Below the pieces are notes generated by a model. That model ran no database searches, was not told the origin of the DNA, and saw only the letters and a program-made list of their open reading frames with translations. DNA of 52,937 bases from Bacteroidota bacterium (GTDB lineage Bacteria; Bacteroidota; Bacteroidia; Bacteroidales; FEN-979), in assembly GCA_037141915.1 (NCBI GenBank), contig JBAXBP010000003.1:1-52937 (forward strand). The letters run 5' to 3'. The position numbers were made by a program, and so were the translations under genes. Positions within the stretch are counted from its first letter, which is position 1, and each line of letters begins with the position of its first letter. Of the stretch, positions 2,237-41,443 are shown one piece after another.

Positions 2237-2307
2237 AACCTATCTTGTATATAACAGAGGAGGTAAAATATCATAATGTAAATATAGGTATTGGCATTAT
2301 ATCGTAT

Positions 2308-2373
2308 TGTAGGATAATCAATAATTAATATGTAGTTGCTTCCACCTGTTTTATTGTAGTTGTTTAACCTACA
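2308..2373 (+). promoter_or_regulatory. Triple TGTAG(G/TTG) motif array, candidate response-regulator binding sites
   Basis: TGTAGG at 2308, TGTAGTTGC at 2331 and TGTAGTTGT at 2355, with an inverted CCTACA at 2368-2373. Spacing is 23/24 nt, mirrored at 5676-5731. Confidence 0.5.
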
Positions 2374-2559
2374 TCAAATTATTATAATCCTCATTATGCA
2401 GCTTTTACATTTATGCTTATGTTAAGCCTAATGAACAATCTGCTGGTTCGTGAAACGGGATTTCAAAAACCCTTATGTCTACATTCGGGAAAAAATATTA
2501 ATATTACCTGTGAAATAATCCTGTCATTGATTCCGCCACATAAAGTAATTTCTGGCCGT

Positions 2560-3603
2560 ATGAGACCCTTGCTTTCCAGGTATGAAGCCTTGTTTGATCT
2601 CGCCCCGGTAGGATACATTATCCTGAATGCGAATTATATTATCCTGGATGTAAATCCTTTTTGTGCCCGATTGCTTGGCGCAGATCAAAAACTGATCATC
2701 GGACAGATTTTTCGCAGGTTTGTTTCCGATGAATCCTGGCCCGTGTTTTCTGCCGGACTTATTACTAACACTCCCCTATCAGAGAACAAGGAGTTTGAAC
2801 TTACCCTGAAAACGGCAGACGGGGCCTTGCTTTCTGCACAGGCTAATGTTTTAAGTCTCGTCTATCCGGACGAATATCTCATTTCAATCCTTGACATGAC
2901 CTACCGCAGGCAAACCGATGACCGCATGCAGGGGCTGACCCAGAAGTTGCGTGATCTCTCGGCTCATATTGAAGCGGGTATGGAGCAGGAAAAAAAGCGC
3001 ATCGCGCGCGAGATCCACGACGGGCTTGGATCATCCCTTTCAGCCCTGAAGATGGAACTGTCGTTGCTACGCCGGCGGCTTGAACCCGGTAATCCTGACC
3101 CTGAAATTGAGAAGCAAATCCGTTCCATGTCGGCGCTGGTTGAAGGAACAGTTGACCTGGTTCGAAAGCTTGCAACCGAATTGCGCCCGGAGGTACTTGA
3201 CGAGTTGGGGCTTATTGCAACCCTGCGCTGGTATACCAGGGATTTCGGGGAACGTGCGGGTTTTACCACAGGGTTCACGGTATATCCTAAAGACTTCAAA
3301 CTCGATCCGGCTCTTTCCACGGCTATTTTCAGGATATTCCAGGAGATCATGAATAACGTAGCCAAGCATTCAGCTGCCGGCAGGGTTACGGTTTTCCTGC
3401 GCAAGCAACAGCATCAGTTCCTCATGCGGGTGCGGGATGACGGGATCGGCATCCGTGAAGAAGAACTGAATCATAAACGCTCATTCGGGATCATCGGGAT
3501 GCAGGAAAGAGTGAAACTTCTGAAAGGCCAGATGAAAATTACAGGGATCAAAGGGAAAGGAACAACCGTTTTGCTTGAGATACCCATTCAAACTAATCCA
3601 TAA
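2560..3603 (+). CDS. PAS-domain sensor histidine kinase, HisKA_3 (NarX/UhpB-like)
   Basis: PAS (LFDLAPVGY), H-box EKKRIAREIHDGLG, and HATPase (QEIMNNVAKHS, DDGIG, GIIGMQER). The ORF is open from 2413, but ATG 2560 is preferred because the upstream sequence is AT-rich and intergenic-like. Confidence 0.92.
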   Translation: MRPLLSRYEALFDLAPVGYIILNANYIILDVNPFCARLLGADQKLIIGQIFRRFVSDESWPVFSAGLITNTPLSENKEFELTLKTADGALLSAQANVLSLVYPDEYLISILDMTYRRQTDDRMQGLTQKLRDLSAHIEAGMEQEKKRIAREIHDGLGSSLSALKMELSLLRRRLEPGNPDPEIEKQIRSMSALVEGTVDLVRKLATELRPEVLDELGLIATLRWYTRDFGERAGFTTGFTVYPKDFKLDPALSTAIFRIFQEIMNNVAKHSAAGRVTVFLRKQQHQFLMRVRDDGIGIREEELNHKRSFGIIGMQERVKLLKGQMKITGIKGKGTTVLLEIPIQTNP

Positions 3604-3614
3604 TCATTAATATT

Positions 3615-4244
3615 ATGATTGAGATACTGATTGTCGATGACCATGCAATTGTGCGTGAAGGTTTACAAGCCATCCTGAAGCTTGAAGAAGGAATATCGGT
3701 AGTGGGGATGGCAAAGAATGCGGCAGAAGCCCTCAAGGTTGTTACTTCGCACAAGGTTGATGTGATTATCCTGGATATCTCACTGCCCGGCCGCAATGGT
3801 CTTGAGATCATAAAAGAAGTGAAAAAGGTGCAGCCGAATGTGAGGATAATCATGCTCAGCGTTTATCCCGAGGACAGGTGTGCGATCCGTGCTTTTAAAG
3901 CAGGGGCTTCGGGCTACCTCACCAAGGAGATGGCGCCGGAGATGATTGTAGAAGCGATCCGCAAAGTCAGTTCCGGGGGTAAATACATTACACCGGCCAT
4001 AGCCGAAAAACTTGCCGATGAACTGAATGAGCTGAACGATAAAACACCGCATGAAAGGCTTTCCGACCGTGAGTTTGACGTGATGTGCATGGTAGGATCG
4101 GGGAAATCGCTCATCGAAATAGCCGAAAAGCTCGGCATCAGCGACCGCACCGTCAGCACCTACCGTACCCGCATCCTCAAAAAGATGAACCTGAAAAACA
4201 ATTCAGAGATTATTCATTACGTGATTGACAACGGGCTTATTTAA
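3615..4244 (+). CDS. NarL/UvrY-family response regulator (REC + LuxR HTH)
   Basis: ILIVDDHAIVREG, phospho-Asp in ILDISLPG, and HTH LSDREFDV...ISDRTVSTYRTRILKKM. Starts 11 nt after the cognate kinase. Confidence 0.95.
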   Translation: MIEILIVDDHAIVREGLQAILKLEEGISVVGMAKNAAEALKVVTSHKVDVIILDISLPGRNGLEIIKEVKKVQPNVRIIMLSVYPEDRCAIRAFKAGASGYLTKEMAPEMIVEAIRKVSSGGKYITPAIAEKLADELNELNDKTPHERLSDREFDVMCMVGSGKSLIEIAEKLGISDRTVSTYRTRILKKMNLKNNSEIIHYVIDNGLI

Positions 4245-4315
4245 TCCTTAAAATCATGAAACCATTTCAGAAATTATTCCTGTTTTTTCTGCTGATGATG
4301 CCTGAAGGCGCATTG

Positions 4316-5602
4316 TTAAACCGAGGATGAACAAACCAGCGACAACGGCAAATGCACCACGAATACCGATCCATCATCGGGACTACTGCTAAAAGTAATG
4401 CCCCCTCCGTGAAGTTTTACCGATTCCATCGCAATATTCAGTCCCAAACCATTTCCTTCAATTCCTGAAGTGTTGCCTGCCCTGAAATAAGGCCTGAAAA
4501 GCTGTTCCTGGTCCTTCAGCGGGATTCCGATTCCATGATCCCGTACACTCAGTAATATGGATTCAGCATCCTGGTATAATCTCACAACCACCGCCTGGCC
4601 GCCTTTGGAATATTTAACAGCGTTTGAGACCAGGTTGTCAACTACCTGGTGGATCAGGCGGATGTCAAGTGACATGGTGAGTTCTTTAAACTCATTCCTG
4701 AATTGTATTTTATTTACAAGCCAGGGATCTGCATTGAAATTATTAATGGTGGTGTTGCAAAATTCAGGCATATCAATGTTTTCCTGAACAACCGGCACCT
4801 TTCCTTCCTGAATTTTCGAGACCTGAAATACCGAATCGACAACTTTGGCCAGGTGCAATGATTGTTCTTTGATATTTAAAACCTTCGCTGCAATTTGTTT
4901 CCTGTCAAGCTTATCCCAATATTCAGCCAGAGATTCGGCCGAGAACAGTATGGATGTGAGAGGTGTCCTGAATTCATGGGAAGTCATTGAGACAAACCGG
5001 GATTTAAGCTCGTTTAGTTCTTTTTCTTTCTGATAATTAAGCAGCAGGCTTTCTTCCAGCTGCTTTCTCTCGGTTATATCCCGCAGGGTTCCGTAGGTCC
5101 CGGTTACTTCATCATTTTCGTTCAAACCCAGCCTTGCAAATACTTCAACCCACTTAAACCCTCCGGATTTTGTGAGGTATCTTATTTCATGCCTGCAGTA
5201 ATCTTTTTTCCTGTTAATCAGGGGGGCAAACAGCTCCATGTTTCTTTCCCTGTCTTCGGGATGAACATAGTTAACGAATAACAGGCCCAACGACTCGGCT
5301 ACGCTGAACCCCGTGATCTCTTCCCATGATTTGTTCAGGAAGATCCACAGTCCCTCGGTATCGGTCTGAAAAATTATTTCCTTTACATTCTCAACAATGG
5401 ACTTGTAAAGTGCTTCACTTCCCCTGAGGACTTCTTCAATCCGTTTACGCTCTTCTATCTGGCATTGCAAGTCATGGTTTGTTCGCGAAAGTTCGGATGT
5501 CCTTTCTGCAATTATAGCTTCAAGGTCCAGGTTGTGAATTTCCCGGTCATCCGACGGTGAGGCCGGGCCGTCCTTTTTGCTGTCTTTAGAATTTGTATTC
5601 AT
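4316..5602 (-). CDS. Cytoplasmic PAS/PAC sensor histidine kinase (HisKA)
   Basis: PAS (FVNYVHPED), PAC (GTLRDITERK), H-box SHEFRTPL, N-box NLVSNAVKYS, DHGIG, GNGLGL. No TM segment seen. ATG 5602 is preferred over TTG 5629. Confidence 0.93.
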   Translation of the reverse strand: MNTNSKDSKKDGPASPSDDREIHNLDLEAIIAERTSELSRTNHDLQCQIEERKRIEEVLRGSEALYKSIVENVKEIIFQTDTEGLWIFLNKSWEEITGFSVAESLGLLFVNYVHPEDRERNMELFAPLINRKKDYCRHEIRYLTKSGGFKWVEVFARLGLNENDEVTGTYGTLRDITERKQLEESLLLNYQKEKELNELKSRFVSMTSHEFRTPLTSILFSAESLAEYWDKLDRKQIAAKVLNIKEQSLHLAKVVDSVFQVSKIQEGKVPVVQENIDMPEFCNTTINNFNADPWLVNKIQFRNEFKELTMSLDIRLIHQVVDNLVSNAVKYSKGGQAVVVRLYQDAESILLSVRDHGIGIPLKDQEQLFRPYFRAGNTSGIEGNGLGLNIAMESVKLHGGGITFSSSPDDGSVFVVHLPLSLVCSSSV

Positions 5603-5675
5603 GCAATCTGTGGGTGAAAACATTAGCAAGTTACAACATTAAGTGAACACCGGACGTAGCGGCTGTGTCATTTAT

Positions 5676-7488: not shown

Positions 7489-7579
7489 ACTTCTTTTATT
7501 TTTTTCACTATATCCCTGTTTATAAGTTCTCGCATAAAGCTGGTGCCCTTATAAAGCTTTGCTTTTACTTTGCAAAGTA

Positions 7580-9604
7580 ATGACGCAATACTTTATCCCT
7601 GCGGCGGTTTTACTTTCGTTTCTTATCCTGGTGGTTCCCGGGAAAGTGCGTTACTATTATACCCTTACCCTTATCCTGTTTATAATTCTGGTGACATCAA
7701 CCCCAGCTGCCATCCAGTTTTTTTCCCCATTTTTAGTTTCTGATTTCCGGCCGGGTTCAGAATTCACGACAAGCCTGACTTCAACAAACTGGATTTTCAA
7801 AGGCTACCTTGGCGAACTCAGGTTCACCATCGACGGTCTGAGTTCATTTTTTATACTTGTCACCAATTTCACGGTACTAACCGGGATCCTTTATTCCAGG
7901 GGATATCTCAAAGCCTATATCGGTATCAAGAACCCTGCCCAGTTCGCACTTCATAATTTCAGCTACATCTGGCTTCATTTTTCAATGCTTGCAGTGCTCA
8001 CTTTGCGCGATGGGCTTTCATTCCTTATTGCCTGGGAACTGATGGCAGTGTCGTCTTTCATGCTGATACTGTTTGAAGCTGAAAAAAGGGCCACATTAAA
8101 AACCGCCGTCAATTACCTGGTACAGATGCATATCGGTTTTATGCTCCTGCTCTTTGCTTTCCTGATAACAGAATCAGGGACCGGGCAGATGTGCTTTGAC
8201 TCCCTGCCTGCATATTTCTCAAACCACTCGAACATCGGGCTCTTCCTGCTGTTCTTTTCGGGCTTTGCTGTCAAGGCAGGATTCATGCCGTTCCACACCT
8301 GGCTTCCCGAAGCCCATCCTGCAGCGCCTTCCCACGTTTCGGGTGTAATGTCGGGAGTGATGATCAAAATGGGGATTTACGGGATCTTTCGTGTGCTCAC
8401 CTCCATACACACCGAATGGTATACAATCGGCCTGGTCCTGCTGATCATTTCGGCTATGACAGGGATACTGGGAATTTTATTCTCAACTGTTCAGAAAGAC
8501 CTGAAAAAAATCCTGGCTTATTCAACCATAGAAAATATAGGGATCATCGGCCTTGGGATCGGCCTTGGATGTATTGGCATGGCCCTGCACAACCCCGTTC
8601 TTGCTGTTCTTGGCTTCACAGGAAGCCTGCTGCATGTGCTCAACCATTCATTGTTTAAATCACTGCTTTTTTATGGGGCAGGATCGGTTTACAGGGCAAC
8701 CCATACAAGGAACATTGAAGAACTGGGCGGGCTTGTTCATTCCCTTCCCCGCACTGCAGGTTTGTTCCTGTTCGGAGCTGTCGCAATCTGCGCACTCCCT
8801 CCCCTGAATGGTTTTATCTCGGAATTCCTTTTATATGCCGGCTTTATCAAAGGGCTTAGCGCTGGTAATGAATACCTTTCAATTTTGTTCCTGCTGATCA
8901 TCATCACGCTTACGCTGATCGGTGGAATGGCTGTCTTCAGTTTCTCAAGGGCCTATGGGATCAGTTTCCTAGGAAGCCCCCGCAAGGAAATTCAGGTACA
9001 TCCTGAAACAATTACCAATGATATGATTTTCCCCCAGATCCTGGTTGCTTTTATGATCCTGGGGATAGGCCTGATGCCGATGGCAGTAATTGCACCAATC
9101 GCAAGCCTGGTTGAAAACACCTTCCACCCCGGCCCCCTTCCTTCAAACCTGTTTTTTACAGAGGCCCTCAATAAGCTCAGCCTTTTCGGCCTCATCCTCA
9201 TCAGCCTGGTAACAGTGATCCTCCTTCTCAGGATGCGCCTGCTTAAAAACCGCAGGCCCGAATACGGGCCCACCTGGGGATGCGGCTATACCGAAGGTAC
9301 GGCCAGGCAGCAATATACAGGAGCTTCGTTTGCCGGCAACCTTTCGGAACTGGCCCAGCCTGTTCTTCAGAACCGCGAGGAATTCAGAGCCATTGCGGCC
9401 GAAGATATCTTTCCGAAGAAACGTTCACTGCATCTTCAGACTAACGATATTTTCGGTAAAGGCCTTGGAATACTCACCGATCTCTCATGGCTGGTCCTGA
9501 AAAAACTGGCGCGCCTGCAAACCGGGAACATCCGCCATTACATACTTTATGCCTTTATTTTCATTCTTCTGATTTTTGCACTTTTATACCTTAAACTCAT
9601 ATGA
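7580..9604 (+). CDS. hyfB: Ehr/hydrogenase-4 component B-like antiporter subunit (NuoL/MrpA family)
   Basis: WELMAVSSF, KAGFMPFHTWLPEAHPAAPSHVSG, LAYSTIENIG, HSLFKSLLF, PPLNGFISE, TWGCGY, and many TM helices. Confidence 0.93.
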   Translation: MTQYFIPAAVLLSFLILVVPGKVRYYYTLTLILFIILVTSTPAAIQFFSPFLVSDFRPGSEFTTSLTSTNWIFKGYLGELRFTIDGLSSFFILVTNFTVLTGILYSRGYLKAYIGIKNPAQFALHNFSYIWLHFSMLAVLTLRDGLSFLIAWELMAVSSFMLILFEAEKRATLKTAVNYLVQMHIGFMLLLFAFLITESGTGQMCFDSLPAYFSNHSNIGLFLLFFSGFAVKAGFMPFHTWLPEAHPAAPSHVSGVMSGVMIKMGIYGIFRVLTSIHTEWYTIGLVLLIISAMTGILGILFSTVQKDLKKILAYSTIENIGIIGLGIGLGCIGMALHNPVLAVLGFTGSLLHVLNHSLFKSLLFYGAGSVYRATHTRNIEELGGLVHSLPRTAGLFLFGAVAICALPPLNGFISEFLLYAGFIKGLSAGNEYLSILFLLIIITLTLIGGMAVFSFSRAYGISFLGSPRKEIQVHPETITNDMIFPQILVAFMILGIGLMPMAVIAPIASLVENTFHPGPLPSNLFFTEALNKLSLFGLILISLVTVILLLRMRLLKNRRPEYGPTWGCGYTEGTARQQYTGASFAGNLSELAQPVLQNREEFRAIAAEDIFPKKRSLHLQTNDIFGKGLGILTDLSWLVLKKLARLQTGNIRHYILYAFIFILLIFALLYLKLI

Positions 9605-10569
9605 CGGGAGCACTGCTGGCCATAGTATCTGCAATTTTCTTCCCGGGGATCATCCTCAGGGTGAAAAGCATTTCCGGCGGTCGTAAAGGTCCGGGGATAC
9701 TGCAACCCTGGAAAAATATCTTCCTGCTGTTCAGGAAAAGCAGCGTTTTCAGCACAACAACCAGTTTTATTTTCAGGCTTGCTCCTGCAGTATATTTCGC
9801 CACTATCTGCTGCGCCCTGATGCTTCTGCCATTCCCGGGCATGCCGTCCGTCATGGGTTTTGAAGGAGATTTCATCCTCTTTGCCTACCTTCTCGCACTG
9901 GGCAAACTGCTGTTTATTCTTGGCGCACTGGATACCGGGAGCAGCTTCGAAGGCATGGGAGCCAACCGCGAAGCCCTTTACTCCATGCTCTCCGAACCGG
10001 CTTTCTTCATACTGTTTGGAACACTGGCACTGCTTTCGAACCACCTCTCAATGCATGACATTTTTTCACATTTCCAGTTTGCCGGAGAATTTTCACTCAT
10101 CACCGGCGCTATCGCAATCTACCTGCTGGTGCAGATTGCAATGATAGAAAACAGCCGCATGCCCGTGGATGATCCTAAAACACATCTCGAACTTACCATG
10201 GTCCACGAGGTGATGATACTCGATTACAGCGGAGTCGACCTTGCCCTGATCCAGACCGGAACAAACCTGAAATTTGTGTTATACGGCGGACTGATCGCGA
10301 ACTTCTTTATGCCGGCCAACAGTGAGTGGTTACAGGTTACTGCAGCCATTCACGGTTCACCATTCACGGTTCATGTGTTGGCAACCTTCCTGAATGTTTC
10401 TATCTTCCTGGCAGTCCAGGCTATATTCGCTGCTGCCATCGGGCTTATGGAATCATTCCGCGCAAGAAAGAAACTGGCTAAAAACCCACAGTTCATCGTG
10501 ACCCTGAGTTCCATCGCCCTCATAGGATTCATACTTGTTTTGTTATTAACCCGCAACCTCATCCGCTGA
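9601..10569 (+). CDS. hyfC: Ehr/hydrogenase-4 component C (NuoH-like membrane subunit)
   Basis: GRKGPGILQP, LDTGSSFEGMGANRE, ENSRMPVDDPKTHLELTMVHEVMILDYSG. ATGA overlap with hyfB. Confidence 0.93.
   Translation: MTGALLAIVSAIFFPGIILRVKSISGGRKGPGILQPWKNIFLLFRKSSVFSTTTSFIFRLAPAVYFATICCALMLLPFPGMPSVMGFEGDFILFAYLLALGKLLFILGALDTGSSFEGMGANREALYSMLSEPAFFILFGTLALLSNHLSMHDIFSHFQFAGEFSLITGAIAIYLLVQIAMIENSRMPVDDPKTHLELTMVHEVMILDYSGVDLALIQTGTNLKFVLYGGLIANFFMPANSEWLQVTAAIHGSPFTVHVLATFLNVSIFLAVQAIFAAAIGLMESFRARKKLAKNPQFIVTLSSIALIGFILVLLLTRNLIR
10318..10375 (+). repeat. Heptamer (TTCACGG-type) repeats with an inverted 5' arm inside hyfC
   Basis: TTCACGG-TTCACCA-TTCACGG-TTCATG at 10349-10375. AACAGTGAGTGG (10318-10329) pairs 11/12 with CCATTCACGGTT. 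Confidence 0.7.
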
Positions 10570-10570
10570 C

Positions 10571-11188
10571 ATGACCCTGATGCTCATCATCGTTTTTGCG
10601 ATCAGCCTGATCTACCTCAGTGTTACCGAGAGGTTCAGGATATATGCAGGGCTGGTAGGGCTGCAGGGACTTTTGCTTTTCGGCATCTCCTTCATGCAAC
10701 TCGACCGAATCACCCTTGCAACGGTATTGTTTGTAGCTATAGAAACCCTGCTGTTCAAAGTGATCATCGTCCCTTACCTGCTGTTTACCGTGATAAGGAA
10801 AACCGGTGTCGCAAGGGTTCATGAGAAAGCGCTGCCTTCCTTTTATTCACTGCTGATGGTGACTCTCGGACTTCTGCTCAGCATCGTGGTCTCCTTTTCG
10901 ATGAACACCACCCCCTATAACCTGATGTTCTTTATTGTTTCATTTTTTGCTGTGTACACAGGCCTGTTCATGATCATTTCGCACAGGAAAATTTTTTCGC
11001 ACCTGGTGGGTTTTCTTGTAATTGAAAATGCAGTCCTTCTGCTCTCACTGGCAATAGGAAGCGAAATCCCTATGCTTATCAACCTGGGGATACTGCTGGA
11101 TATCTTTGTAAGCGTGCTCATCCTGGGTATCTTCGTGATGCGCCTCAGGCAGCAGACTGATGATTTAACAATACTGAAAGACGATTGA
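10571..11188 (+). CDS. hyfE: Ehr/hydrogenase-4 component E (NuoK-like C-terminus)
   Basis: Highly hydrophobic, with KVIIVPYLL, VGFLVIENAV and EIPMLINLGILLD. Position in the operon fits. Confidence 0.9.
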   Translation: MTLMLIIVFAISLIYLSVTERFRIYAGLVGLQGLLLFGISFMQLDRITLATVLFVAIETLLFKVIIVPYLLFTVIRKTGVARVHEKALPSFYSLLMVTLGLLLSIVVSFSMNTTPYNLMFFIVSFFAVYTGLFMIISHRKIFSHLVGFLVIENAVLLLSLAIGSEIPMLINLGILLDIFVSVLILGIFVMRLRQQTDDLTILKDD

Positions 11189-11205
11189 CAACCATGAATA
11201 ATTAT

Positions 11206-11237
11206 TTCGCTACTTCACTACTTCGCTACTTCGCTAT
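11206..11237 (+). repeat. Octamer tandem repeat TTCGCTAC x4 between hyfE and hyfF
   Basis: TTCGCTAC-TTCACTAC-TTCGCTAC-TTCGCTAT. Confidence 0.9.
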
Positions 11238-11244
11238 TTAATAT

Positions 11245-12684
11245 ATGCTCAACGCCACCAACATATTTGTTGTCTTCTTCGCCACATCCCTGTTGCTGGG
11301 ACTGCTGGTCGGCCTGATCCATTCCAAGTCCCTGGCAAGATCCCTGACTTCGTTTTATGTGGTCGTACATATAGCATTTACGGTATACTGCTGGAGTCAC
11401 AGGGGTGAAACCGTTCTGGATTATTTTACATTTGACACACTGGGACTTTTACTCCAGTCGGTGCTTTCCATACTAACGGTAACCACGGTATTTCACGGGT
11501 TTATATACGTCCGTAACAATTCTCCAAGGACCTATGCCATTTATCATGCGGCATTGATAGCGCTGATCGCTTCGATGACAGGCGCATATTTCGCCAACGG
11601 GATGACCACAGTCTGGATATTCGTGGAAGCCACGACTCTTTCGGTTGCAGCCCTTATCTACCATGACCGAACGGCTATGGCTCTTGAAGCCACCTGGAAG
11701 TACGTCTTCGTATGTTCAGTGGGTATCGCCCTGGCATACATCGGAATTCTTTTCCTGGGCTTCACCGTTCGCGATGCCCGTTTGCTTCACCTTTCATTTT
11801 CATCCATCACCGAGATCGCAAAGCTTGCCAACCCTCTTTACCTGAAGATCGCTTTCGTATTTGTACTTGTAGGCTACAGCACCAAAATGGGGCTCTTCCC
11901 AATGCATACCGTGACTGTGGATGCGCATACAGTAGCCCCACCGCCTATCAGCGCATTCATCTCCACAACCCTGATGAACGTCGGCTTCCTGGCTATTTTC
12001 CGCATCTATGCCCTGTTTTCGGCAACCCCGATACTGCCGTTTATGAACCATGTGCTGCTTCTCTCGGGTTTCCTGTCCCTGCTGATCTCAGCCGGGTACA
12101 TGCTCAAAGCCAAGCACAACAAACGAATGCTTGCATACTCCAGCCTCGAGAACATGGGTATCGTCGCAATAGCGCTCGGAATGGGTGGCATTGGATATTA
12201 TGCTGCTATACTGCATATCATCCTGCATTCTTTTGCAAAAGCAGGGCTGTTTTACCAGATGGGCCAGTCGTACAAGATCATGGGGTCTTATAACCTGGAT
12301 GAATCGGGCAATTACATGAACCTCTACCCGGCTGGAGCAACGGCCCTTTTGCTGGGCCTGGTCTGCATTACGGCCATCCCTCCTTCGGGGATGTTTATTT
12401 CGGAACTGCTCATGTTTAAAGCAATGGTCGCAAACGGCAATTACTTTTTTATGGCAGTTGCTGCAATACTTCTTTGCTTCGTGCTCTATGCCCTGCTCAC
12501 AAGAGTCCTACATATTGTTTTTTCGCAACCAAGGACTCAAAGCCTGAAGCCGCCTGAAAAAGTAAACCCCTGGCAAACCGTTTCACAGTTCGTACTTTTC
12601 GGGATCGTGATCTTTATCTGCTTTACCCAGCCTGCATTTTTCAGGGACCTCATCAATGATATCATTCAAAATCTGCCAAGATGA
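11245..12684 (+). CDS. hyfF: Ehr/hydrogenase-4 component F (NuoM/N, MrpD-like antiporter subunit)
   Basis: WIFVEATTLS, LEATWKYVFVCSVGIA, GYSTKMGLFPMH, KRMLAYSSLENMG, HSFAKAGLF, PPSGMFISE. Confidence 0.93.
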   Translation: MLNATNIFVVFFATSLLLGLLVGLIHSKSLARSLTSFYVVVHIAFTVYCWSHRGETVLDYFTFDTLGLLLQSVLSILTVTTVFHGFIYVRNNSPRTYAIYHAALIALIASMTGAYFANGMTTVWIFVEATTLSVAALIYHDRTAMALEATWKYVFVCSVGIALAYIGILFLGFTVRDARLLHLSFSSITEIAKLANPLYLKIAFVFVLVGYSTKMGLFPMHTVTVDAHTVAPPPISAFISTTLMNVGFLAIFRIYALFSATPILPFMNHVLLLSGFLSLLISAGYMLKAKHNKRMLAYSSLENMGIVAIALGMGGIGYYAAILHIILHSFAKAGLFYQMGQSYKIMGSYNLDESGNYMNLYPAGATALLLGLVCITAIPPSGMFISELLMFKAMVANGNYFFMAVAAILLCFVLYALLTRVLHIVFSQPRTQSLKPPEKVNPWQTVSQFVLFGIVIFICFTQPAFFRDLINDIIQNLPR

Positions 12685-14237
12685 GTGAAGAACGTGATAA
12701 TCGTAATGACGTGATGGTCGTGATGAAATCCAATCCATTCATTGTTCAGATTAAAGATATTCCTGTCCTCGATTATCCTGAATTCAGGGATAAAGTAAAT
12801 GATCTGATGGCGGATGAGGGATTCCACTGCGTTACCTATCACGCGGTCCCGCTGGGCGCAGCACTCAGGTTTTTCTGCTGCATCGCCTCCGACAACGAGC
12901 ATACAATGATCCTGCTTTCGCATGTACAGAACTCCTCTCCCCTGCCGGTACTCGACTCACTTACTGCTTCCCATCCTTCATTTCATCTGTATGAACGAGA
13001 AATCAGTGAACAGTATGGAGTGATATTCACAGGGCATCCGTGGATGAAGCCGGTGCGCACTCACAGTTCGCGATTCACGGTTCACGGTTCACGGCTCACG
13101 GGCTCTTCCGTAGATGAATTTCCTTTTTATTCCATAGAGGGTGAAGGCATTCATGAGGTGGGTGTAGGCCCCATTCATGCAGGAGTCATTGAACCCGGGT
13201 ATTTCCGTTTCAGCTGTAACGGGGAAAAGGTCCTGCATCTTGAAATACAACTGGGGTTCCAGCACAGGGGTATTGAGAAACGTTTCATTGAAAAGCAATC
13301 GGGAATACAGCGTGCAGTTCTCTCCGAAAGTATTGCAGGCGATTCCGCTGTCGGCCATTCCATTGCTCATGCCCAGCTTATGGAAGCCCTCTCGGGAAAT
13401 GCATTTTCTCCTGCCCTGCAATGTGAACGTGTAATAGCCCTCGAACTGGAGAGGATTGCAGTTCACATCGGCGATTCCGCAGCCCTTTGCACCGACATCG
13501 CATACCAGTTCGGGCAGGTAGTGAATGAAGCCCTGCGTACCGTAGTGATCAACACAACCCAGTCGTGGTGCGGGAACCGTTTTGGGAAAGGCCTTGTAAG
13601 GATGGGGGGCAGCCATTATCCTTTAACAACAGGGTTAAGCAAGACCCTCCTGTCAAACCTGAAAGAGGTTGAAGAAAGATATGGGCAGATAACGCATGAA
13701 ATGTTTACAAACCCCAGTGTACTCGGCCGTTTCGAGGGGATAGGAAAAGTAAGCGCACACCAGGCCGGTATGATAGGCGCTGTTGGCATGGCATCGAGAA
13801 GCAGCGGGGTGAAACGCGATATCCGCTGGTCGCATCCCTTCCAGGCTTTCAGCATTTATTCTTATGAACCGGTGACACTCCACCAGGGAGATGTGTGGGC
13901 AAGGGCAATGCTGAGGAAACTTGAAGTGGAGAAGTCAATTCTGCTTATCAGGAAAATCCTTGAAACGATGGGTCCTGAAGGAACAGCATCAGTACCGGTT
14001 TATGATCTTAAATTCCGGGCTTCAAGCTTTGCCTTGTCCCTGGCCGAGGGATGGAGGGGCGAGATAATGCAATCGGCAGTCACCGACGAAAAAGGGAACA
14101 TCATCCATTATAAAGTCAAGGATCCTTCATTTCATAACTGGATGGCCCTGGCCCTGGCTGTTCGCAACCAGGAGATCTCGGATTTCCCGTTATGCAACAA
14201 AAGTTATAATCTTTCGTACTGCGGGTTTGATTTGTGA
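12681..14237 (+). CDS. hyfG: Ehr large subunit (NuoC+NuoD/HyfG-like) without NiFe-binding CxxC motifs
   Basis: YEREISEQYG...GHPWMKPVR, VGVGPIHAGVIEPG, HRGIEK, EGWRGE, KDPSFHNW. The L1 site reads ESIAGDS and the C-terminus reads NKSYNLSYCGFDL. Confidence 0.93.
   Translation: MSEERDNRNDVMVVMKSNPFIVQIKDIPVLDYPEFRDKVNDLMADEGFHCVTYHAVPLGAALRFFCCIASDNEHTMILLSHVQNSSPLPVLDSLTASHPSFHLYEREISEQYGVIFTGHPWMKPVRTHSSRFTVHGSRLTGSSVDEFPFYSIEGEGIHEVGVGPIHAGVIEPGYFRFSCNGEKVLHLEIQLGFQHRGIEKRFIEKQSGIQRAVLSESIAGDSAVGHSIAHAQLMEALSGNAFSPALQCERVIALELERIAVHIGDSAALCTDIAYQFGQVVNEALRTVVINTTQSWCGNRFGKGLVRMGGSHYPLTTGLSKTLLSNLKEVEERYGQITHEMFTNPSVLGRFEGIGKVSAHQAGMIGAVGMASRSSGVKRDIRWSHPFQAFSIYSYEPVTLHQGDVWARAMLRKLEVEKSILLIRKILETMGPEGTASVPVYDLKFRASSFALSLAEGWRGEIMQSAVTDEKGNIIHYKVKDPSFHNWMALALAVRNQEISDFPLCNKSYNLSYCGFDL
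13060..13101 (+). repeat. Six heptamers (TTCACGG consensus), 42 nt, in frame inside the Ehr large subunit
   Basis: CTCACAG-TTCGCGA-TTCACGG-TTCACGG-TTCACGG-CTCACGG, encoding THSSRFTVHGSRLTG. Confidence 0.9.
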
Positions 14238-14265
14238 GAAAGGGAATATCGAATATTCAAATTAA

Positions 14266-15024
14266 ATGGCACTTAGTATTATAAAAATTTTCCGCCGCCA
14301 CGGCAGGCAGTACATCAAGGACCTTCGAAAAGCGGTTATTCCTGAAGGCTTTCGCGGCCGCCCGGTGATAGCTGCAGATATTACCCAGGCTGAACAGGAG
14401 GCCGCCATTTCAATCTGCCCCACAGGAGCAATCCTTGCCGGGCCTTTCCGTCTCGACCTGGGGAAATGCGAATTCTGCAATGAATGTGTTTTTGCTGTTC
14501 AGGGGAAGATCAGGTTTACCAATGATCACAGGCTTTCGGTGAGCAAACCTGAAGATCTCATCATTAATGCAGGTGAGGACAAGGCCCTGGTTGTTGACCA
14601 GGCTGCGGTGAGAAAAGAGATACGGTCTTATTTCGGGCATGCATTAAAGCTCAGGCAGGTCTCTGCAGGAGGTGACAATGCAAGCGAAATGGAACTCAAT
14701 GCAGCAGGAAATGTGAATTTCGACATGGGACGTTACGGCATAGAATTCGTAGCATCACCCAGGCATGCAGATGGTATTGTAATTACCGGACCGGTTAGCG
14801 GCAATATGGCTGAAGCCCTTCAGATCTGTTACGATGCGGTGCCTTCCCCAAAAATCGTGGTACTTGCAGGGACCGCAGCCATAAGCGGCGGAATATTCAG
14901 TGACAGTGCTGAACTCCAGAGGAAATTCATTGAGACTATCAGGCCTGATCTTTATGTACCGGGCAATCCGCCCCATCCCCTGACGTTCATCAACGGGATA
15001 CTCGATCTGACAGGGAGAAAGTGA
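14266..15024 (+). CDS. hyfI: Ehr small subunit: N-terminal ferredoxin-like domain fused to a NuoB/HyfI-like domain
   Basis: FRGRP, ICPTGAI, LDLGKCEFCNEC, FVASPRHADGIVITGPV, DLYVPGNPPHP. Confidence 0.92.
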   Translation: MALSIIKIFRRHGRQYIKDLRKAVIPEGFRGRPVIAADITQAEQEAAISICPTGAILAGPFRLDLGKCEFCNECVFAVQGKIRFTNDHRLSVSKPEDLIINAGEDKALVVDQAAVRKEIRSYFGHALKLRQVSAGGDNASEMELNAAGNVNFDMGRYGIEFVASPRHADGIVITGPVSGNMAEALQICYDAVPSPKIVVLAGTAAISGGIFSDSAELQRKFIETIRPDLYVPGNPPHPLTFINGILDLTGRK

Positions 15025-21746: not shown

Positions 21747-21762
21747 TATTTTTGTATTTTTG
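21747..21762 (+). promoter_or_regulatory. Tandem TATTTTTG -7 elements immediately upstream of rpoN
   Basis: TATTTTTG at 21747-21754 and 21755-21762, with ATG at 21767. Confidence 0.6.
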
Positions 21763-21766
21763 TCTT

Positions 21767-23266
21767 ATGCTTCATCAACGACAACAACAAAAACTACTCC
21801 AGAAACTCTCGCCTCAACAGGTACTTGTGATGCGGCTGTTGCAACAACCCGTGATATCGCTTGAACAAAGGATCAAACAGGAAATCGAAGAGAATCCTGC
21901 CCTTGAAGAAACTACCGATATAAACGATTTAGACGAAATTGACGACGAAAATGAGCCGGAGTCTATCGACGCCGATGAGGACACATTCTCTGAAGAGGAT
22001 GAAGACCACTCAGAACTGAAGGTCGACAATGAATTTTCTTTTGAAGATTACTTTGACCTGGATGATATTCCCGATTACAAATTAGTCTCGAACAACCGCA
22101 GCCCCGATGAAGAAGCCTGGGAGACACCGGTGGTTTCTGGTACCAGCTTCCAGGAATACCTGCTAGCCCAGATGGGAGTCCAGAAGATACCCGACAAGCA
22201 ATTTATCATCGCTTCCACAATCATCGGGAACCTTGATGAAACCGGGTATCTTACCCGCGAGGTTCCGGCCCTTATCAATGACCTGGCATTCAACCAGAAT
22301 TTAGACGCCAGTGAAGCTGAAATATTGGAGGCCCTTCAGCTTGTGCAGGGGTTTGACCCTCCCGGCATTGCTGCAAGAACTCTTCAGGAATGCCTTCTCC
22401 TGCAATTGATCAGCAAGCCCGACAGGACCTATGCCACCGACCTTGCCGAAGTGATAGTACGTTACTATTTTGAAGAATTCTCAAAGAAGCATTATGAGAA
22501 GATCCTTCAGAAAGCACATATTACCGAGGAGGAGCTGAAGGAAGCAGTTGAAGAGATTACCAAGCTGAACCCGAAACCGGGCTTTACCATCAGCGAGGAG
22601 GTCAGAAGCAGCCAGTATATAATCCCTGATTTCCTTATTACTATCAATGACGGCGAAATTGAACTTACCCTGAATTCAAGGAATGCTCCAGAGCTTTCAA
22701 TAAACAGGGAGTATATCGACATGCTCCAGGGGTATAATCATAAGAAAAAGAAGATCAACAGCAACGAGAAAGCTGCCCTCTCTTTCATAAAGCAGAAGAT
22801 CGACTCGGCAAGGGGTTTCATCGATGCTATCAAGCAGCGGCAGGAAACGCTGTATGTAACTATGAGAGCGATCATGGACTACCAGAAGGAGTATTTCCAG
22901 ACCGGGGATGAGACAAGGCTTAAACCAATGATACTTAAAGACATTTCAAATAAGGTAGGCCTTGACATCAGCACCGTATCAAGGGTTGCAAATTCAAAAT
23001 ATGTCCAAACTCCCTTCGGCACATTCCTGCTTAAAAGTTTCTTTTCCGAATCCCTTCAGAATACAATGGGTGAAGAGATCTCAACAAGGGAAATTAAGAA
23101 AATACTTTCCGACACCATTGAAGCAGAAAATAAATCAACTCCACTTACCGATGAGGAACTGGAGGAAATCCTACTGAAAAAAGGTTACAACATTGCAAGG
23201 CGCACTATAGCCAAATACCGCAAACAGCTAAGAATACCTGTTGCCAGGCTGAGGAAGGAACTCTGA
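21767..23266 (+). CDS. rpoN: RNA polymerase sigma-54 factor
   Basis: Gln-rich N-terminus (QKLSPQQ...EIEENPALE), PMILKDI...DISTVSRVANSKY, and the RpoN box ARRTIAKYR. Confidence 0.97.
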   Translation: MLHQRQQQKLLQKLSPQQVLVMRLLQQPVISLEQRIKQEIEENPALEETTDINDLDEIDDENEPESIDADEDTFSEEDEDHSELKVDNEFSFEDYFDLDDIPDYKLVSNNRSPDEEAWETPVVSGTSFQEYLLAQMGVQKIPDKQFIIASTIIGNLDETGYLTREVPALINDLAFNQNLDASEAEILEALQLVQGFDPPGIAARTLQECLLLQLISKPDRTYATDLAEVIVRYYFEEFSKKHYEKILQKAHITEEELKEAVEEITKLNPKPGFTISEEVRSSQYIIPDFLITINDGEIELTLNSRNAPELSINREYIDMLQGYNHKKKKINSNEKAALSFIKQKIDSARGFIDAIKQRQETLYVTMRAIMDYQKEYFQTGDETRLKPMILKDISNKVGLDISTVSRVANSKYVQTPFGTFLLKSFFSESLQNTMGEEISTREIKKILSDTIEAENKSTPLTDEELEEILLKKGYNIARRTIAKYRKQLRIPVARLRKEL

Positions 23267-25631: not shown

Positions 25632-25678
25632 TTTCGCCTTTCGCCTTTCGCTATTTCGCTACTTCGCTACTTCGCCAC
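25632..25678. repeat. Heptamer-to-octamer tandem repeat (TTTCGCC x2, then TTCGCYAY x4) overlapping the gluP stop codon
   Basis: TTTCGCC-TTTCGCC-T-TTCGCTAT-TTCGCTAC-TTCGCTAC-TTCGCCAC. It encodes WRSSEVAK* on the minus strand. Confidence 0.9.
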
Positions 25679-27018
25679 TTTCTTATTTTATGTCCCCTCA
25701 CCGCGTAATAAAGAATATACGCATAGCAGGGAACCGTAATCCAGTATGCCTCTGCCTGCCCGAAAACATCGGCCAGCCTGCCGTATGCCAGGGGTAACAA
25801 CGCCCCTCCTGCAATGCCCATGATGAGCAGGGATGAGCCTATTTTGGTGAATTTTCCAAGTCCGTCAATAGCCAGCGGCCAGATTGCAGGCCACATAATG
25901 GCATTTGCAAGCCCGAGTAAAGCGATAAAGAATACGCTCAGGTCGAACGGCAGGGTAAGGGAAAAGCTCCCGATATTGATCAGGAGGGATGACTGGTAAG
26001 GGGCTTTGGTAGCCAGCATAGCGCAGACCACGAAAAGTATTCCGAATAAGGCGGAGGCTGCAAGCACGAATTCCTGTTTAAGGTATTTAGGGATGGTAAT
26101 GATCCCGATGATATAACCTATCACCATGGCTGCCAAGGTATAGGAGGCGAAATACTTTGCCTGCACGAAACCAATTCCCTGCGATTTACCGAAATTGATG
26201 ATGGTATCCACGGCGATGACTTCGACTCCCACATACAGGAATATCGCCACGACCCCGAGCACAAGCTGGGGGAACTGGAAAACGCTCGTTTTGTTTTGAT
26301 GCGAGACGGCATCCCCGACTTCCTCCGCATCGGTATCTATATCTGGCAGGTTGGAATACCTGAGCAGGATCGCCAGCAGAAAAAGAACCACTGCCATTAC
26401 AATATACGGCACGATGATCCTCCCGGCCAGGGCATTAAGGGTAAGATTGCGGTTTATCTCATCCAGTGATGCAAGATATTGCTTATCGAATTTGTCCATA
26501 CCCGCCAGCACTATTGCACCCAGGATAAGCGGGCTGATCACACCGGCTATTTTGTTGCAAATCCCCATAATGCTAATCCTCTTGGCTGCACTTTCAATGG
26601 GGCCCAGGATTGTTACATAGGGATTGGTTGCCGTTTGCAGGATGGCCAGTCCTGTACCCTCGATAAAAAGCCCGGTAAGGAACAGGCCGAACATCCTCGT
26701 GTAGGCTGCAGGTATAAAAAGCAGGGCGCCCAGTGCCATCACGATAAGCCCCAGCGACATTCCGTTTTTGAATCCAACCTTTCGAAGCAGGAATGAAGAA
26801 GGAATAGCCATCACCAGATATGAAATATAAAATGCAGAAGCTACAAAGTAAGCCTCAAAATTGTTCTTTTCGCAGGCCACCTTGAGAAATGGAATAAGGA
26901 CTGAATTAAGCCAGGTAACAAATCCGAAGATAAAAAAGAAGATCCCTATGATGAAGATCGAAAAAATGTACCGGGATTTGCCTGGATTCAGGGATGAGGG
27001 TTGGGGGGTTTGGGTCAT
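25651..27018 (-). CDS. gluP: Glucose/galactose MFS permease (FucP/GluP family)
   Basis: [56 protein letters not shown] -7 element TATTTTTG lies at 27037-27044 on the minus strand. Confidence 0.92.
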
Positions 27019-27103
27019 TTGGGAGAAATTTCAGGGCAAAAATAAAGGAATTCTGAATTTCACCAAATTATCCTATTTTTGTTGTTACAAGAACTACGGC
27101 AGA

Positions 27104-29131
27104 ATGGAACCTAAGGCTGAGAAATTTAATATCCTGATAGTTGATGACAGAAAAGAGAATCTGATTACACTCGAAACTATCATTGACAGCCCTGAACTGA
27201 AGATAATCAAGGCACTTTCGGGCAATGAGGCCCTCGCCCTCATGATTGAACATGAAATCTCACTGGTGTTGCTCGATGTGAACATGCCGGGAATGGACGG
27301 TTTTGAAACAGCTGAACTGATGCGCGGGAGCGAAAGGACCAAGAGCATCCCCATCATCTTCATCACTGCCACCTACCGCCAGCCAAAACAGATTTTCAGG
27401 GGGTATGAAACAGGGGCTGTGGATTATCTTTATAAACCGCTTGACCGGAAGATACTGCAAAACAAGATCAGGGCATATATCGATTTCTTCAAACAGAAGC
27501 ATGCCCTGCAGATTGCAACCGTTACACTCAAAAGCACCATTGCCGAACTCGACAAGGCAAAGAAAGCAGCTGAAGTGGCAACTCTTGCCAAAAGCTCCTT
27601 TCTGGCCAACATGAGCCATGAAATCAGGACACCTTTAAACGGGATCATAGGTATGACTGACCTCATGCTGATGGATGACGACCTTCAGCAACATTATAAG
27701 GAACAGTTGTCCGACATAAAGCAAAGCGGTGAATCACTGCTGGAGATCATTAACGAGATCCTTGATATATCTAAAATAGAAGCTGACAAGATAGAGATAG
27801 AGATCATTGAATTCAGTTTAAGGGAACTCCTTGAATCGGTCATTCGCCTGCTGTCAGTAAAGACTTACCAGAAAAACCTGGCTTTTTTCTGTGAACACCC
27901 TGCCAACCTCCCCGATATGTACCTGGGCGATCCAACAAGGATAAGGCAGGTACTGATAAATCTCATCGGGAATGCCTTGAAATTTACTGAAAAAGGGAAT
28001 ATCTGCCTTAGCATCAGCATTATTGAACAACTTGAACATGGTTACGTCCTGGATTTTACAGTAAGTGATACCGGGATCGGAATTCCTGCCGATAAACTGG
28101 AAGTATTGTTTGAATCATACAGCCAGGCCGATAAATCAACCACCCGCACCTATGGAGGAACAGGTCTTGGCCTTACAATTTCTAAAAAACTTGTGGAGTT
28201 GATGGGAGGTAAAGTCAGTGTAAGCAGCAAAGTCGGCAAAGGCAGCACTTTCGGGTTCAACCTACCGCTTTTCATCCCCGACACTCCCGATCATGCTTTC
28301 GTTCTTGAGTTACCCGGGGAAATCATGGGATCAAAAATCATCATTGCAGATGCCGAACCAAAGCATTCCTTACAGCTTACAGAGTTCCTGACTTCATGGG
28401 GCTTCAGGCCTGTTATAGTGAAATCCCCGGGTGAATGCTTGGAGGAGATCCGCGCAGCAGGCATTGATGGGGTAAAAGTAGTTTTTATAGACCAGGCCTT
28501 GCAGAATGGGAATACCGGGAATTTTTACGGGAAAATCCTTGAGGCCAGTCCTGAAGGGAAGAAACCCGAAAGAGTTGTCATGCTATCCAATAAATCAGTG
28601 CAGGCCACCCGTAAACTTGTTGCGGAAGGTATCACCCATTACCTCTTTAAACCCGTCCTGCATATGGATCTCCTGCATATGATGGAAAGGATACTGGGGC
28701 TTAAAACAACCCAGGCAAGTACAGATTCACATATCCAGTCATTCAGTAAAACGGGGCCGAAACTACATATCCTGGTTGCTGAAGACCAGCCAATTAACCA
28801 ACGGATCATGGTGCAGCTGCTTGGGAAAAAAGGCTGGGACGTGACCACTGCCAATAACGGCCTTGAAGCCATGCATAAGGCACATGAAACAGAGTTCTCC
28901 ATTATACTCATGGATGTGATGATGCCCGAAATGGACGGTTTTGAATGCACCCGGATGATTCGGCAGGATACCGAGGGGAAGAACTTCAATACTCCGATCA
29001 TCGCCCTTACTGCCAATGCCATGAAAGGTGACAGGGAACAGTGTATTGCCTCCGGAATGAATGATTATATTTCAAAACCTATCAATCCGGAAGAAGTATT
29101 CCAGATCATTGAAAAATATTATTCAAAGTGA
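27104..29131 (+). CDS. Cytoplasmic hybrid histidine kinase (REC-HisKA-HATPase-degenerate REC-REC)
   Basis: [66 protein letters not shown] at 27074-27081 supports ATG 27104. Confidence 0.94.
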
Positions 29132-29144
29132 AATCCCAAGGATT

Positions 29145-33411: not shown

Positions 33412-33451
33412 ATGTTTCTTTTTTTGTGTATGTGGATGGCATTATCCGGGA

Positions 33452-34210: not shown

Positions 34211-34218
34211 AATTCAAT

Positions 34219-36335: not shown

Positions 36336-36347
36336 TGTAATCTATTT

Positions 36348-36387
36348 AAAAGTGAAAGGCAACATTTTTGCAAATGCTGCCAATCAC
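36348..36387 (-). terminator. Hairpin between pstS and pstC (terminator or mRNA-stabilising stem)
   Basis: Minus strand GTGATTGGCAGCATTT-GCAA-AAATGTTGCCTTTCAC followed by TTTT. Confidence 0.65.
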
Positions 36388-36412
36388 CTACACACAATTA
36401 CTAACAAAAGTA

Positions 36413-37252: not shown

Positions 37253-37296
37253 TTTCTTTATTTTATGTTTTTTATATCTTTATCTTTTCTGAAATA

Positions 37297-37352
37297 TTTC
37301 GCTTTTCGCTTTTCGCTTTTCGCTTTTCGCTTTTCGCTTTTCGCTTTTCGCT
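37297..37352. repeat. Perfect heptamer tandem repeat TTTCGCT x8 (AGCGAAA on the mRNA)
   Basis: Eight exact copies, 2 nt after the porin stop and upstream of pstS. Confidence 0.97.
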
Positions 37353-37354
37353 TT

Positions 37355-41399: not shown

Positions 41400-41443
41400 A
41401 TGCTGATCACAACCGGTCAAAATTAATAAAAACCCCGTAACCC

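Follow-up and report, generated by a model that had tools for sequence, protein, structure and literature searches.

The window analysed here, a stretch of DNA of 52,937 nucleotides, carried an operon for a variant of the Ehr (Ech- or energy-converting-hydrogenase-related) complex with a single predicted iron-sulfur cluster. Judged from alignments, the cluster-less clade to which its small subunit EhrS belonged had lost eight ligands, precisely those of two clusters: the N2 (proximal) cluster and one cluster of the ferredoxin domain. The parent family was already known, since Ehr was first named in Geobacter sulfurreducens; what we read as new was a widespread one-cluster Ehr without N2, frequent among Bacteroidales of environmental origin.

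The operon consisted of six co-directional and tightly packed genes on the plus strand (7559-15024), which were recognized as Ehr-type from their open reading frames and their Pfam, NCBIfam and PDB matches. Three of the junctions overlapped or abutted, and ehrS started 28 bases past the ehrL stop. The first gene, ehrA (7559..9604), encoded a HyfB/NuoL-like antiporter-type membrane subunit of 681 aa (Pfam PF00361, 1.4e-50), whose best NCBIfam match was hydrogenase 4 subunit B, under the cut-off of that model. It was followed by ehrB (9601..10569), encoding a NuoH/HycD/MbhM-like membrane subunit of 322 aa (Pfam PF00146, 7.2e-27; best PDB matches HycD 7z0s_D, 1.2e-19, and MbhM 6cfw_M, 8e-18), and by ehrC (10571..11188), encoding a HyfE-like small membrane subunit of 205 aa. 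The Pfam search gave no match for EhrC, and NCBIfam model PRK11492, a hydrogenase 4 membrane subunit, matched it at 1.6e-12, under the cut-off; ehrC was syntenic in 67 of the best 80 genome loci. The product of ehrD (11245..12684) was a HyfF/NuoN/MbhH-like antiporter-type subunit of 479 aa (Pfam PF00361, 4.3e-39) that matched the MBS subunit 6u8y_H (1.8e-24) and MbhH 6cfw_H (2.8e-22). A NuoC-like part and a NuoD/large-subunit-like part were fused in the 518-aa EhrL (ehrL, 12681..14237; Pfam PF00346 and PF00329; MbhL 6cfw_L, 1e-29; HycE 7z0s_E, 1.7e-29). Finally, ehrS (14266..15024) encoded the small subunit of 252 aa, in which a ferredoxin-like domain (approximately residues 1-110) preceded a NuoB/MbhJ-like domain (approximately 125-250), the protein matching Pfam PF01058 (Oxidored_q6) at 1e-18 with 67.8 bits against a cut-off of 27.

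All six products belonged to the complex I/hydrogenase superfamily, and each of them stayed under the curated cut-off of every named equivalog in Pfam and NCBIfam. The composition was that of a group-4-hydrogenase-like cluster with NuoL-, NuoH-, HyfE- and NuoN-like subunits plus a large and a small subunit, and the large subunit had neither the L1 (RxCGxC) nor the L2 (DPCxxC) NiFe cysteines. By these sequence features, the gene set at 7559-15024 was assigned to the Ehr complex. Synteny of the full operon was retained in 62 of the 80 genome loci.

In the translation of ehrS, the segments that correspond to the N2 ligand motifs read GGDNASE (residues 135-141, 14668-14688), GTAAISGG (residues 202-209, 14869-14892) and PGNPP (residues 232-236, 14959-14973). 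All four N2 cysteines were replaced, namely by D137 (14674-14676) and S140 (14683-14685) at ligands 1 and 2, by A204 (14875-14877) at ligand 3 and by N234 (14965-14967) at ligand 4, all on the plus strand; the sister type had cysteine at each of these positions in 52 of 52 sequences. When EhrS was aligned by phmmer to the solved MbhJ chain 6cfw_J (E 1.4e-21), D137 and S140 lay under the CxxC pair, A204 under the cysteine of GaCp..G, and N234 under that of PGCPP, and the alignment with cysteine-bearing relatives gave the same four ligand columns. The NuoB domain had only one cysteine, C188, so it was unable to supply cysteine ligation for a cluster. Thus, although the Pfam domain itself was matched, the four N2 cysteines of a group 4 hydrogenase or NuoB small subunit were absent from EhrS. 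The neighbouring residues A163, S164, P165, R166, H167, A168 and D169 as well as G175 were invariant in both cluster-bearing and cluster-less relatives. An assembly error behind the cysteine losses was rejected, because contigs from four other public runs, some of them possibly from the same sampling campaign, were identical over the gene.

The replacements were not equally variable. Among the best 120 close homologues (59-86% identity), position 137 was D in all 120 and position 234 was N in 119, and N234 was also found in 107 of 107 cluster-less rows. Position 140 varied (A 93, C 15, S 5, T 5, V 1 and P 1) and was a cysteine in 43 of the 107 cluster-less rows of the wider clade; position 204 was D in 82 homologues, A in 35 and another residue in 3. 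When 107 cluster-less rows were compared with 52 cluster-bearing rows, only three of the 252 EhrS columns separated the two types at >=85%. Since these were columns 137, 204 and 234, the pattern of ligand loss was not due to chance.

The only complete cluster site of EhrS was located in the ferredoxin domain and consisted of C51 (14416-14418), C68 (14467-14469), C71 (14476-14478) and C74 (14485-14487), again on the plus strand. This set, C51(P) followed by C68-x2-C71-x2-C74, was kept in 120 of 120 close homologues and in 160 of 160 loci (80 genome and 80 metagenome loci). Positions 40, 44, 47 and 78 read T, Q, A and V. The sister type had cysteine there in 49-51 of about 52 cluster-bearing rows, and the cluster-less rows had none at 40, 44 and 47 and a cysteine at 78 in 7 of 107. 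Two-cluster ferredoxins are usually cross-ligated, and on this pattern we take one cluster to have lost exactly its four ligands and the other to have kept exactly its own four. The eight cysteines in two CxxCxxCxxxCP motifs that characterize ferredoxin subunits of the NuoI/HycF/MbhN type were therefore incomplete in EhrS, the N-terminal domain of which had MbhN 6cfw_N as its best PDB match (E 0.0047). The sister Ehr operons encoded EhrS proteins with 12 cysteines, enough for three clusters, next to a large subunit that was NiFe-less too. From this contrast at 40, 44, 47 and 78, together with that at N2, we concluded that an ancestor with three clusters gave rise to a clade with one.

The three altered motifs, the replacement of all four N2 ligands, the conserved flanking sequence, the intact frame and a ferredoxin domain with one four-cysteine site had been described in an earlier note on this DNA, and the translation of 14266-15024 together with both alignments agreed with it on each point. 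Its account of the extent of the loss held for N2 but had missed the three-cluster sister forms, in comparison with which the loss amounted to two clusters instead of a single one.

The genome scan covered the best 80 of 291 stretches encoding a relative, mostly MAGs of Bacteroidales with a few Marinilabiliales and Ignavibacteria, and all 80 of these species-level loci were of the cluster-less type. Relatives from Prolixibacteraceae and Draconibacterium were also represented among them. A second scan, of metagenomes, was seeded with the cysteine-bearing sisters and provided 80 loci, of which 52 had CCCC at N2, 26 were cluster-less and 2 were of other kinds. All intermediate cluster states were present among 60 distant representatives with both domains: some had three clusters, 12 had the retained cluster and N2, and 11 had the retained cluster only, which itself was almost never missing. 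With E <= 1e-40 as the threshold, 52 of the 201 evenly sampled genomes of the order were positive for an EhrS-like gene (49 of the 179 high-quality genomes), and the EhrS types in 20 of the 52 positive genomes were cluster-less in 17 cases and three-cluster in 3.

A quick maximum-likelihood tree was built from 109 rows, after those with a gap at any ligand column or with less than 90% coverage of residues 125-245 had been dropped. The EhrS of the window was placed in a starred clade of 19 rows (SH-aLRT 96) nested among CCCC rows, and 16 of the 19 were without any N2 cysteine. Other cysteine-less rows fell elsewhere in the tree, so that it required at least six changes, of which starred branches forced four. 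Rows of other cysteine-less lineages read, for example, DSSD, DIDD/DVDS and DAAD at the ligand positions. A single cysteine-less clade gave a borderline result in the AU test (p 0.047, delta lnL 117.5), the group having been named after the tree was seen. This suggests recurrent loss of N2 elsewhere in the family. Going by the tree and these alignments, the Ehr of the window was a member of a monophyletic subclade, mainly from Bacteroidota, for which the loss of the N2 ligands was a clade trait.

The large and small subunits bind each other as a textbook pair, and EhrL had also departed from the hydrogenase pattern. Its four NiFe-ligand positions read A, S, S and G in the alignment, its L1 motif was ESIAGDSAVGH and its C-terminus was CNKSYNLSYCGFDL, so that it had none of the four NiFe-ligating cysteines of a group 4 [NiFe]-hydrogenase large subunit. 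The 147 related large subunits recovered from the 160 loci never had more than one cysteine at the NiFe positions (4 rows had one), and all of them were NiFe-less with ESIAGDT..GH and CNKSFNLSYCG.DL regardless of the type of small subunit. Since this was the case beside either small-subunit type, the NiFe site was lost before N2. Across both types, 75 EhrL residues were invariant, including E216, G220, D221, N506, K507, S508, S512, Y513 and D517 at the former NiFe (L1/L2) motifs. Only two EhrL columns separated the types, 49 (R to H) and 303 (R to K, both from cluster-bearing to cluster-less). Column 303 aligned without gaps to H170 of Thermus Nqo4 (2fug_4), a residue that presumably adjoins the histidine contacting N2. 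The change at 303 may reflect an adaptation of the large subunit to the empty N2 site, and a lineage effect would also be possible in a clade of single origin. Moreover, the cluster-less clade gained conserved EhrL cysteines and histidines (H49, C50, C66, C67 and C270), which may bind metal.

The membrane arm was conserved throughout. The EhrA residues E160, K239, K270, K316, E325, H359, H363, K367 and E422 and the EhrD residues E128, K214, K332 and E387 were 100% conserved in both types, and EhrB E124, E132, E183, R186, D190, D191, H195, E197, H202, E203, D208 and E284, among them residues of the NuoH-like cytoplasmic loop, were conserved at 95-100%, likewise in both types. The TM5 Glu, TM7 Lys and TM12 Lys of EhrD were visible in the alignment with MBS/MbhH. 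Accordingly, both MrpA/D-type subunits had the TM5 Glu, TM7 Lys and TM12 Lys/Glu of Mrp antiporters (E160, K239, K367 and E422 in EhrA; E128, K214, K332 and E387 in EhrD), the charges being assigned to particular helices from the alignment and from what we take to be their usual positions. Because residues of the membrane arm, the NuoH-like loop and EhrL were conserved in both types, the coupling interface and the pump looked fully functional.

Selection on ehrS was purifying. Against a 96%-identical relative, the whole gene had a dN/dS of 0.15 and its NuoB domain one of 0.032; for this domain it was 0.045-0.081 against six of eight more distant relatives, those for which it was computable, and for ehrS it was 0.05-0.10 against relatives at 77-80% identity, where dS was saturated. 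The NuoB domain was the slowest-evolving part. Its rate relative to EhrD was 0.46 in the cluster-less type versus 0.44 in the cysteine-bearing type, so there was no relaxation in this domain, whereas the ferredoxin domain evolved somewhat faster in the cluster-less type (1.23 versus 0.80); in these comparisons the pairs were not independent and the cysteine-bearing sample was 13 genomes. In the AlphaFold2 model of EhrS (pLDDT 93.7, pTM 0.90), the former ligand loops had pLDDT values of 95-97, and the NuoB part of the model superposed on MbhJ in Foldseek with a TM of 0.83 and an rmsd of 1.9 A. Thus, the NuoB fold was intact as modelled.

The suggestions of the earlier note that the complex had no NiFe site, that its ion-translocating arm was preserved and that it represented a distinct subfamily were all upheld, the last of them by the nearly invariant D137 and N234, the SH-aLRT support of 96 and the purifying selection. 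It had proposed to tabulate the ligands of homologues on a tree with dN/dS; this was done, and the outcome that it had named as refuting it, homologues with the cysteines beside a relaxed copy, was not seen: the four-cysteine set proved to be absent clade-wide, with no sign of decay. The functions that it put forward, a redox-uncoupled or redox-gated transporter or a site with other ligation, are kept here as candidates. Its view that the system was undescribed may hold in part. The parent Ehr family was already known, but that Ehr small subunits can be without N2 ligands was not mentioned in the accessible text of the literature searched (PMC6349859, PMC4758237, PMC7894505, PMC7304191, PMC10284858, PMC4378227, PMC12342949, bioRxiv 10.1101/328856, PMC3144371 and PMC5492636), a set to which the original Ehr descriptions and the supplements did not belong. 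The same accessible text of the Ehr literature did not mention small-subunit clusters of Ehr, and the function of Ehr was still called unknown in the available parts of papers from 2023 and 2025 (PMC10284858, PMC12342949).

The genomic surroundings of the operon were variable. No conserved flanking partner gene was found among the 62 full-operon loci, where the largest flank family occurred in only 16; the only recurrent flanking genes were a MacAB-type efflux set, present in at most 16 of the 62 loci, all of them from close relatives. Since no flanking gene was conserved with the Ehr operon, no dehydrogenase partner was indicated. Elsewhere in its own genome (3.9 Mb, 82.6% complete) there were two NuoB genes of the ordinary kind, complete in their N2 cysteines, as well as a 373-aa small subunit of the NiFe-hydrogenase type. 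The ordinary NuoB genes implied that Fe-S assembly and a normal complex I were present and that Ehr was an extra system. The DNA was known from freshwater sites, and the look-up of RNA runs for the operon gave none.

The relation to Mrp antiporters was also considered. None of the Mrp small subunits MrpB, C, E, F and G was found in the operon, which had the six Ehr genes only, and a search for MrpE (PF01899) gave no match in the 82.6% complete genome. Across the 201 genomes, 8 had both Ehr and MrpE, 44 had Ehr only, 45 had MrpE only and 104 had neither. The negative association was weak (odds ratio 0.42, p 0.044, uncorrected for relatedness), and we set the complementarity of Ehr and Mrp aside for this weakness. 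The co-occurrence of MrpE in 8 of the 52 Ehr-positive genomes counts against an Mrp-like reading of Ehr. Similarly, canonical Mrp needs no NuoB/C/D/H-like cap, yet Ehr keeps one, which counts against a plain antiporter.

By homology to MbhN and NuoI, the retained cluster (C51, C68/C71/C74) would be the middle one of an old three-cluster wire, and it would be left without a neighbour on either side. With both neighbours gone, electrons would be unable to reach the former catalytic pocket; the inter-cluster distances in MBH and complex I underlie this picture of a cut wire. From it we infer that the complex was probably not working as a hydrogenase or as a redox pump of the complex I type. Of the readings considered, the most likely was that it moves ions (H+ and/or Na+) with no redox drive of the canonical kind, acting as a secondary transporter like Mrp or driven by a gradient. 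On this reading, the peripheral cap would be a plug with a structural or regulatory task, and the one cluster left would stabilise the fold or sense redox state or oxygen. We assigned this main reading a probability of roughly 0.45.

The main rival, unlikely if far from negligible, was that the complex was still a redox enzyme, in which the retained cluster would pass electrons from ferredoxin or a docking dehydrogenase to a nearby acceptor, bypassing N2 and NiFe, and thereby drive ions. Pairing of Ehr with formate dehydrogenase modules has been proposed in the available portions of two publications (PMC6349859, PMC7894505). The ligands of the retained cluster were invariant at all 160 loci and kept by nearly all distant representatives, the other two clusters being dispensable, and both the NuoB domain and the NuoH-like coupling loop were under undiminished constraint; an unrelaxed NuoB domain beside such a cluster could fit an essential role that was still redox. 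However, neither a dehydrogenase nor any other partner gene was conserved beside the operon, and the cluster would lie one cluster off the pocket, which, at the distances we take to apply, would be too far for direct transfer. In addition, Nqo4 Y87 and H38, presumably the quinone-site tyrosine and histidine of complex I, aligned in 2fug_4 to EhrL G220 and I170, so EhrL had no counterpart of the NuoD Tyr and His.

Another possibility was that a conserved polar pocket runs or senses a non-redox event, such as ligand or ion binding, protonation or a conversion, coupled to the antiporter-like subunits. The logic would be like that of the CO2-hydrating NDH-1/CupA and of DabAB, which couple complex-I-type modules to non-redox chemistry. 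It would be consistent with the 75 invariant EhrL residues, many of them at the former L1/L2 motifs, with D137 and N234 being invariant and D204 common at the former cluster site, and with the substitution at EhrL 303 beside the presumed N2-contacting histidine. On the other hand, no ligand or catalytic motif was identified, the group-specific columns may be mere lineage markers of one clade, and the same pocket residues were conserved in the N2-bearing type, which leaves the loss of N2 unexplained. We regarded this explanation as improbable.

Still less credit was given to a cofactor at the old N2 spot held by the non-cysteine ligands D137, D204 and N234, and sometimes C140; it would be a mononuclear metal or a cation, and much less likely an Fe-S cluster. 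A [4Fe-4S] site without any cysteine is not known to us. D137 (120 of 120) and N234 (119 of 120) were as invariant as ligands would be, aspartate was frequent at 204 (82 of 120), cysteine recurred at 140 (15 of 120, and 43 of 107 in the wider clade), and the loops were modelled with the high pLDDT given above. However, the EhrS of the window, reading D, S, A and N, could offer at most one carboxylate and one amide, and positions 140 and 204 varied freely within the clade. Lastly, the selection and distribution data excluded, with hardly any residual doubt, that ehrS was a small-subunit gene of a hydrogenase or of complex I that had ceased to function and was decaying. The sole point in favour was that eight cluster ligands were lost; against it stood an intact frame, dN/dS of 0.03-0.15, substitutions fixed in 107 rows, an operon syntenic in 62 of 80 genome loci, the occurrence of the gene across the order (52 of the 201 genomes), and two normal NuoB genes elsewhere in its own genome, which made ehrS a separate paralogue.

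Beyond the main reading of ion movement without a canonical redox drive, we tentatively considered a bolder one, itself rather unlikely, in which Ehr would be a member of the complex I superfamily without redox function. A polar pocket formed by D137/D204/N234 of EhrS and K303, D221 and N506-S508 of EhrL would be the working site at which transport is coupled to an ion gradient or to a non-redox event, with the isolated [4Fe-4S] cluster as a gate that responds to redox state or oxygen. The NuoB/C/D/H interface, the E-channel loop and the two antiporter-like pumps were under strong selection. If this reading was true, the coupling mechanism of complex I can run without quinone or proton reduction, and the one-cluster Ehr would offer a minimal system from nature in which to study that mechanism.

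For complex I and the group 4 hydrogenases, the usual view is that electrons must pass N2, or the proximal cluster, as their last carrier and that ion pumping is triggered by the redox chemistry of this cluster. Here, a large conserved clade dropped N2 as well as the cluster upstream of the retained one, with an interface and pumps as conserved as in its sisters. Either the coupling parts function without electron delivery, or an unrecognised electron route exists; both options bear directly on the way in which the peripheral arm is coupled to ion translocation in the complex I family. The Ehr forms with three, two and one clusters provide a natural comparative series. The result also corrects the routine annotation of the one-cluster genes, which public records label 'NADH:ubiquinone oxidoreductase' or 'Ni,Fe-hydrogenase III small subunit'; judged by sequence, the one-cluster genes can be neither.

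By its predicted ligands, the complex of the window lay outside the definitions of group 4 hydrogenases, complex I and two-cluster ferredoxin subunits. Mrp (Mnh/Pha) has two MrpA/D-type subunits with conserved charges in common with Ehr and, like it, no evident driving electron path. However, Mrp includes MrpB, C, E, F and G as well and is without a NuoB/C/D/H-like cap, so that only the pump subunits were shared. The modules of the NuoB, C, D, H and L/M/N type are homologous to those of complex I (Nuo/Nqo), and the antiporter-like Lys/Glu chain was conserved in Ehr, but the Ehr of the window was without the N2 ligands, the NuoA/J/K set and the NADH module. The best solved homologues of its subunits were in formate hydrogenlyase of E. 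coli (Hyc, 7z0s), Hyf, and MBH (6cfw) and MBS (6u8y) of Pyrococcus furiosus, namely MbhJ/HycG, MbhL/HycE, HycD/MbhM, MbhH and MBS H, and MbhN. In these complexes a NiFe site (modified in MBS) and a proximal cluster are present, and the two-cluster ferredoxin is a subunit of its own; here the small subunit included the ferredoxin as a fused domain, and neither the NiFe nor the proximal site was left. The closest likeness was to the known Ehr, with the same six-gene layout and a large subunit without NiFe cysteines. In comparison to the sister Ehr with three cluster sites, the EhrS of the window had one cluster site and no N2 ligands.

Only two columns of the large subunit EhrL separated the cluster-less Ehr type, which lacks the N2 ligands, from its sister type carrying all four cysteines. 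One of them was column 303 (K303, window 13587-13589, plus strand), which was occupied by lysine in 93 of 94 cluster-less rows versus arginine in 36 of 38 cluster-bearing rows. Its alignment counterpart in Thermus Nqo4 was H170, which adjoins the N2-contacting histidine.

Several conserved histidine and cysteine residues of EhrL, encoded on the same strand, were gained in the cluster-less clade. Namely, H49 and C50 (12825-12830) were found in 89/89 and 85/89 rows, while the cluster-bearing type had arginine at the first position and leucine, methionine, or isoleucine at the second. The pair C66 and C67 (12876-12881) was present in 83 and 74 of the 91 rows, with alanine and valine as the respective counterparts, and C270 (13488-13490) in 93 of 94, with alanine in the cluster-bearing type. 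The column of M463 (14067-14069) contained cysteine in 82 of 98 clade rows and methionine in the window itself. These residues may represent a new metal site or simple substitutions in the protein core.

The sole recurrent neighbor of the ehr operon was an efflux set, and it was confined to close relatives. In the window, the minus strand between 15033 and 21612 encoded this set, made up of a MacB-type permease with an ABC ATPase, a HlyD-type adaptor, and an outer-membrane efflux protein, and after it a LytTR response regulator as well as a histidine kinase. The rpoN gene for sigma-54 was located next on the plus strand (21752-23266). Further along the window, the minus strand carried a phosphate uptake cluster (32650-38890) with PhoU, an ABC ATPase, two permeases, a PBP-like binding protein, and a phosphate-selective porin-like protein. 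Sensor kinases of the PAS/GAF/Cache kind, along with hybrid kinases, were unusually abundant in the window (2-5629, 26861-32681, and 39039-41420). A 756-aa ORF probably started downstream of its TTG at 26861, since from that codon it overlapped the end of an opposite-strand MFS gene (25651-27018).

The same genome (G000) also encoded two canonical NuoB genes with the full N2 cysteine set, suggesting two complex-I-type operons, and a cysteine-rich NiFe-hydrogenase-type small subunit of 373 aa (contigs C6:23599-23934, C4:42599-42925, and C28:20097-20534).

All N2 cysteines were also missing from fused small subunits of other, more distant lineages. Their representative proteins had DSSD (P0212/P0262), DIDD/DVDS (P0178/P0228), SEGD/DAAD (P0218/P0220), or TDES (P0169) at the four ligand columns, and P0212 seemed to retain both ferredoxin clusters with N2 absent. 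In source records, members of the cluster-less clade were labeled as "NADH:ubiquinone oxidoreductase" or "Ni,Fe-hydrogenase III small subunit"; both names are misleading for this clade because the predicted proteins lack the ligands.
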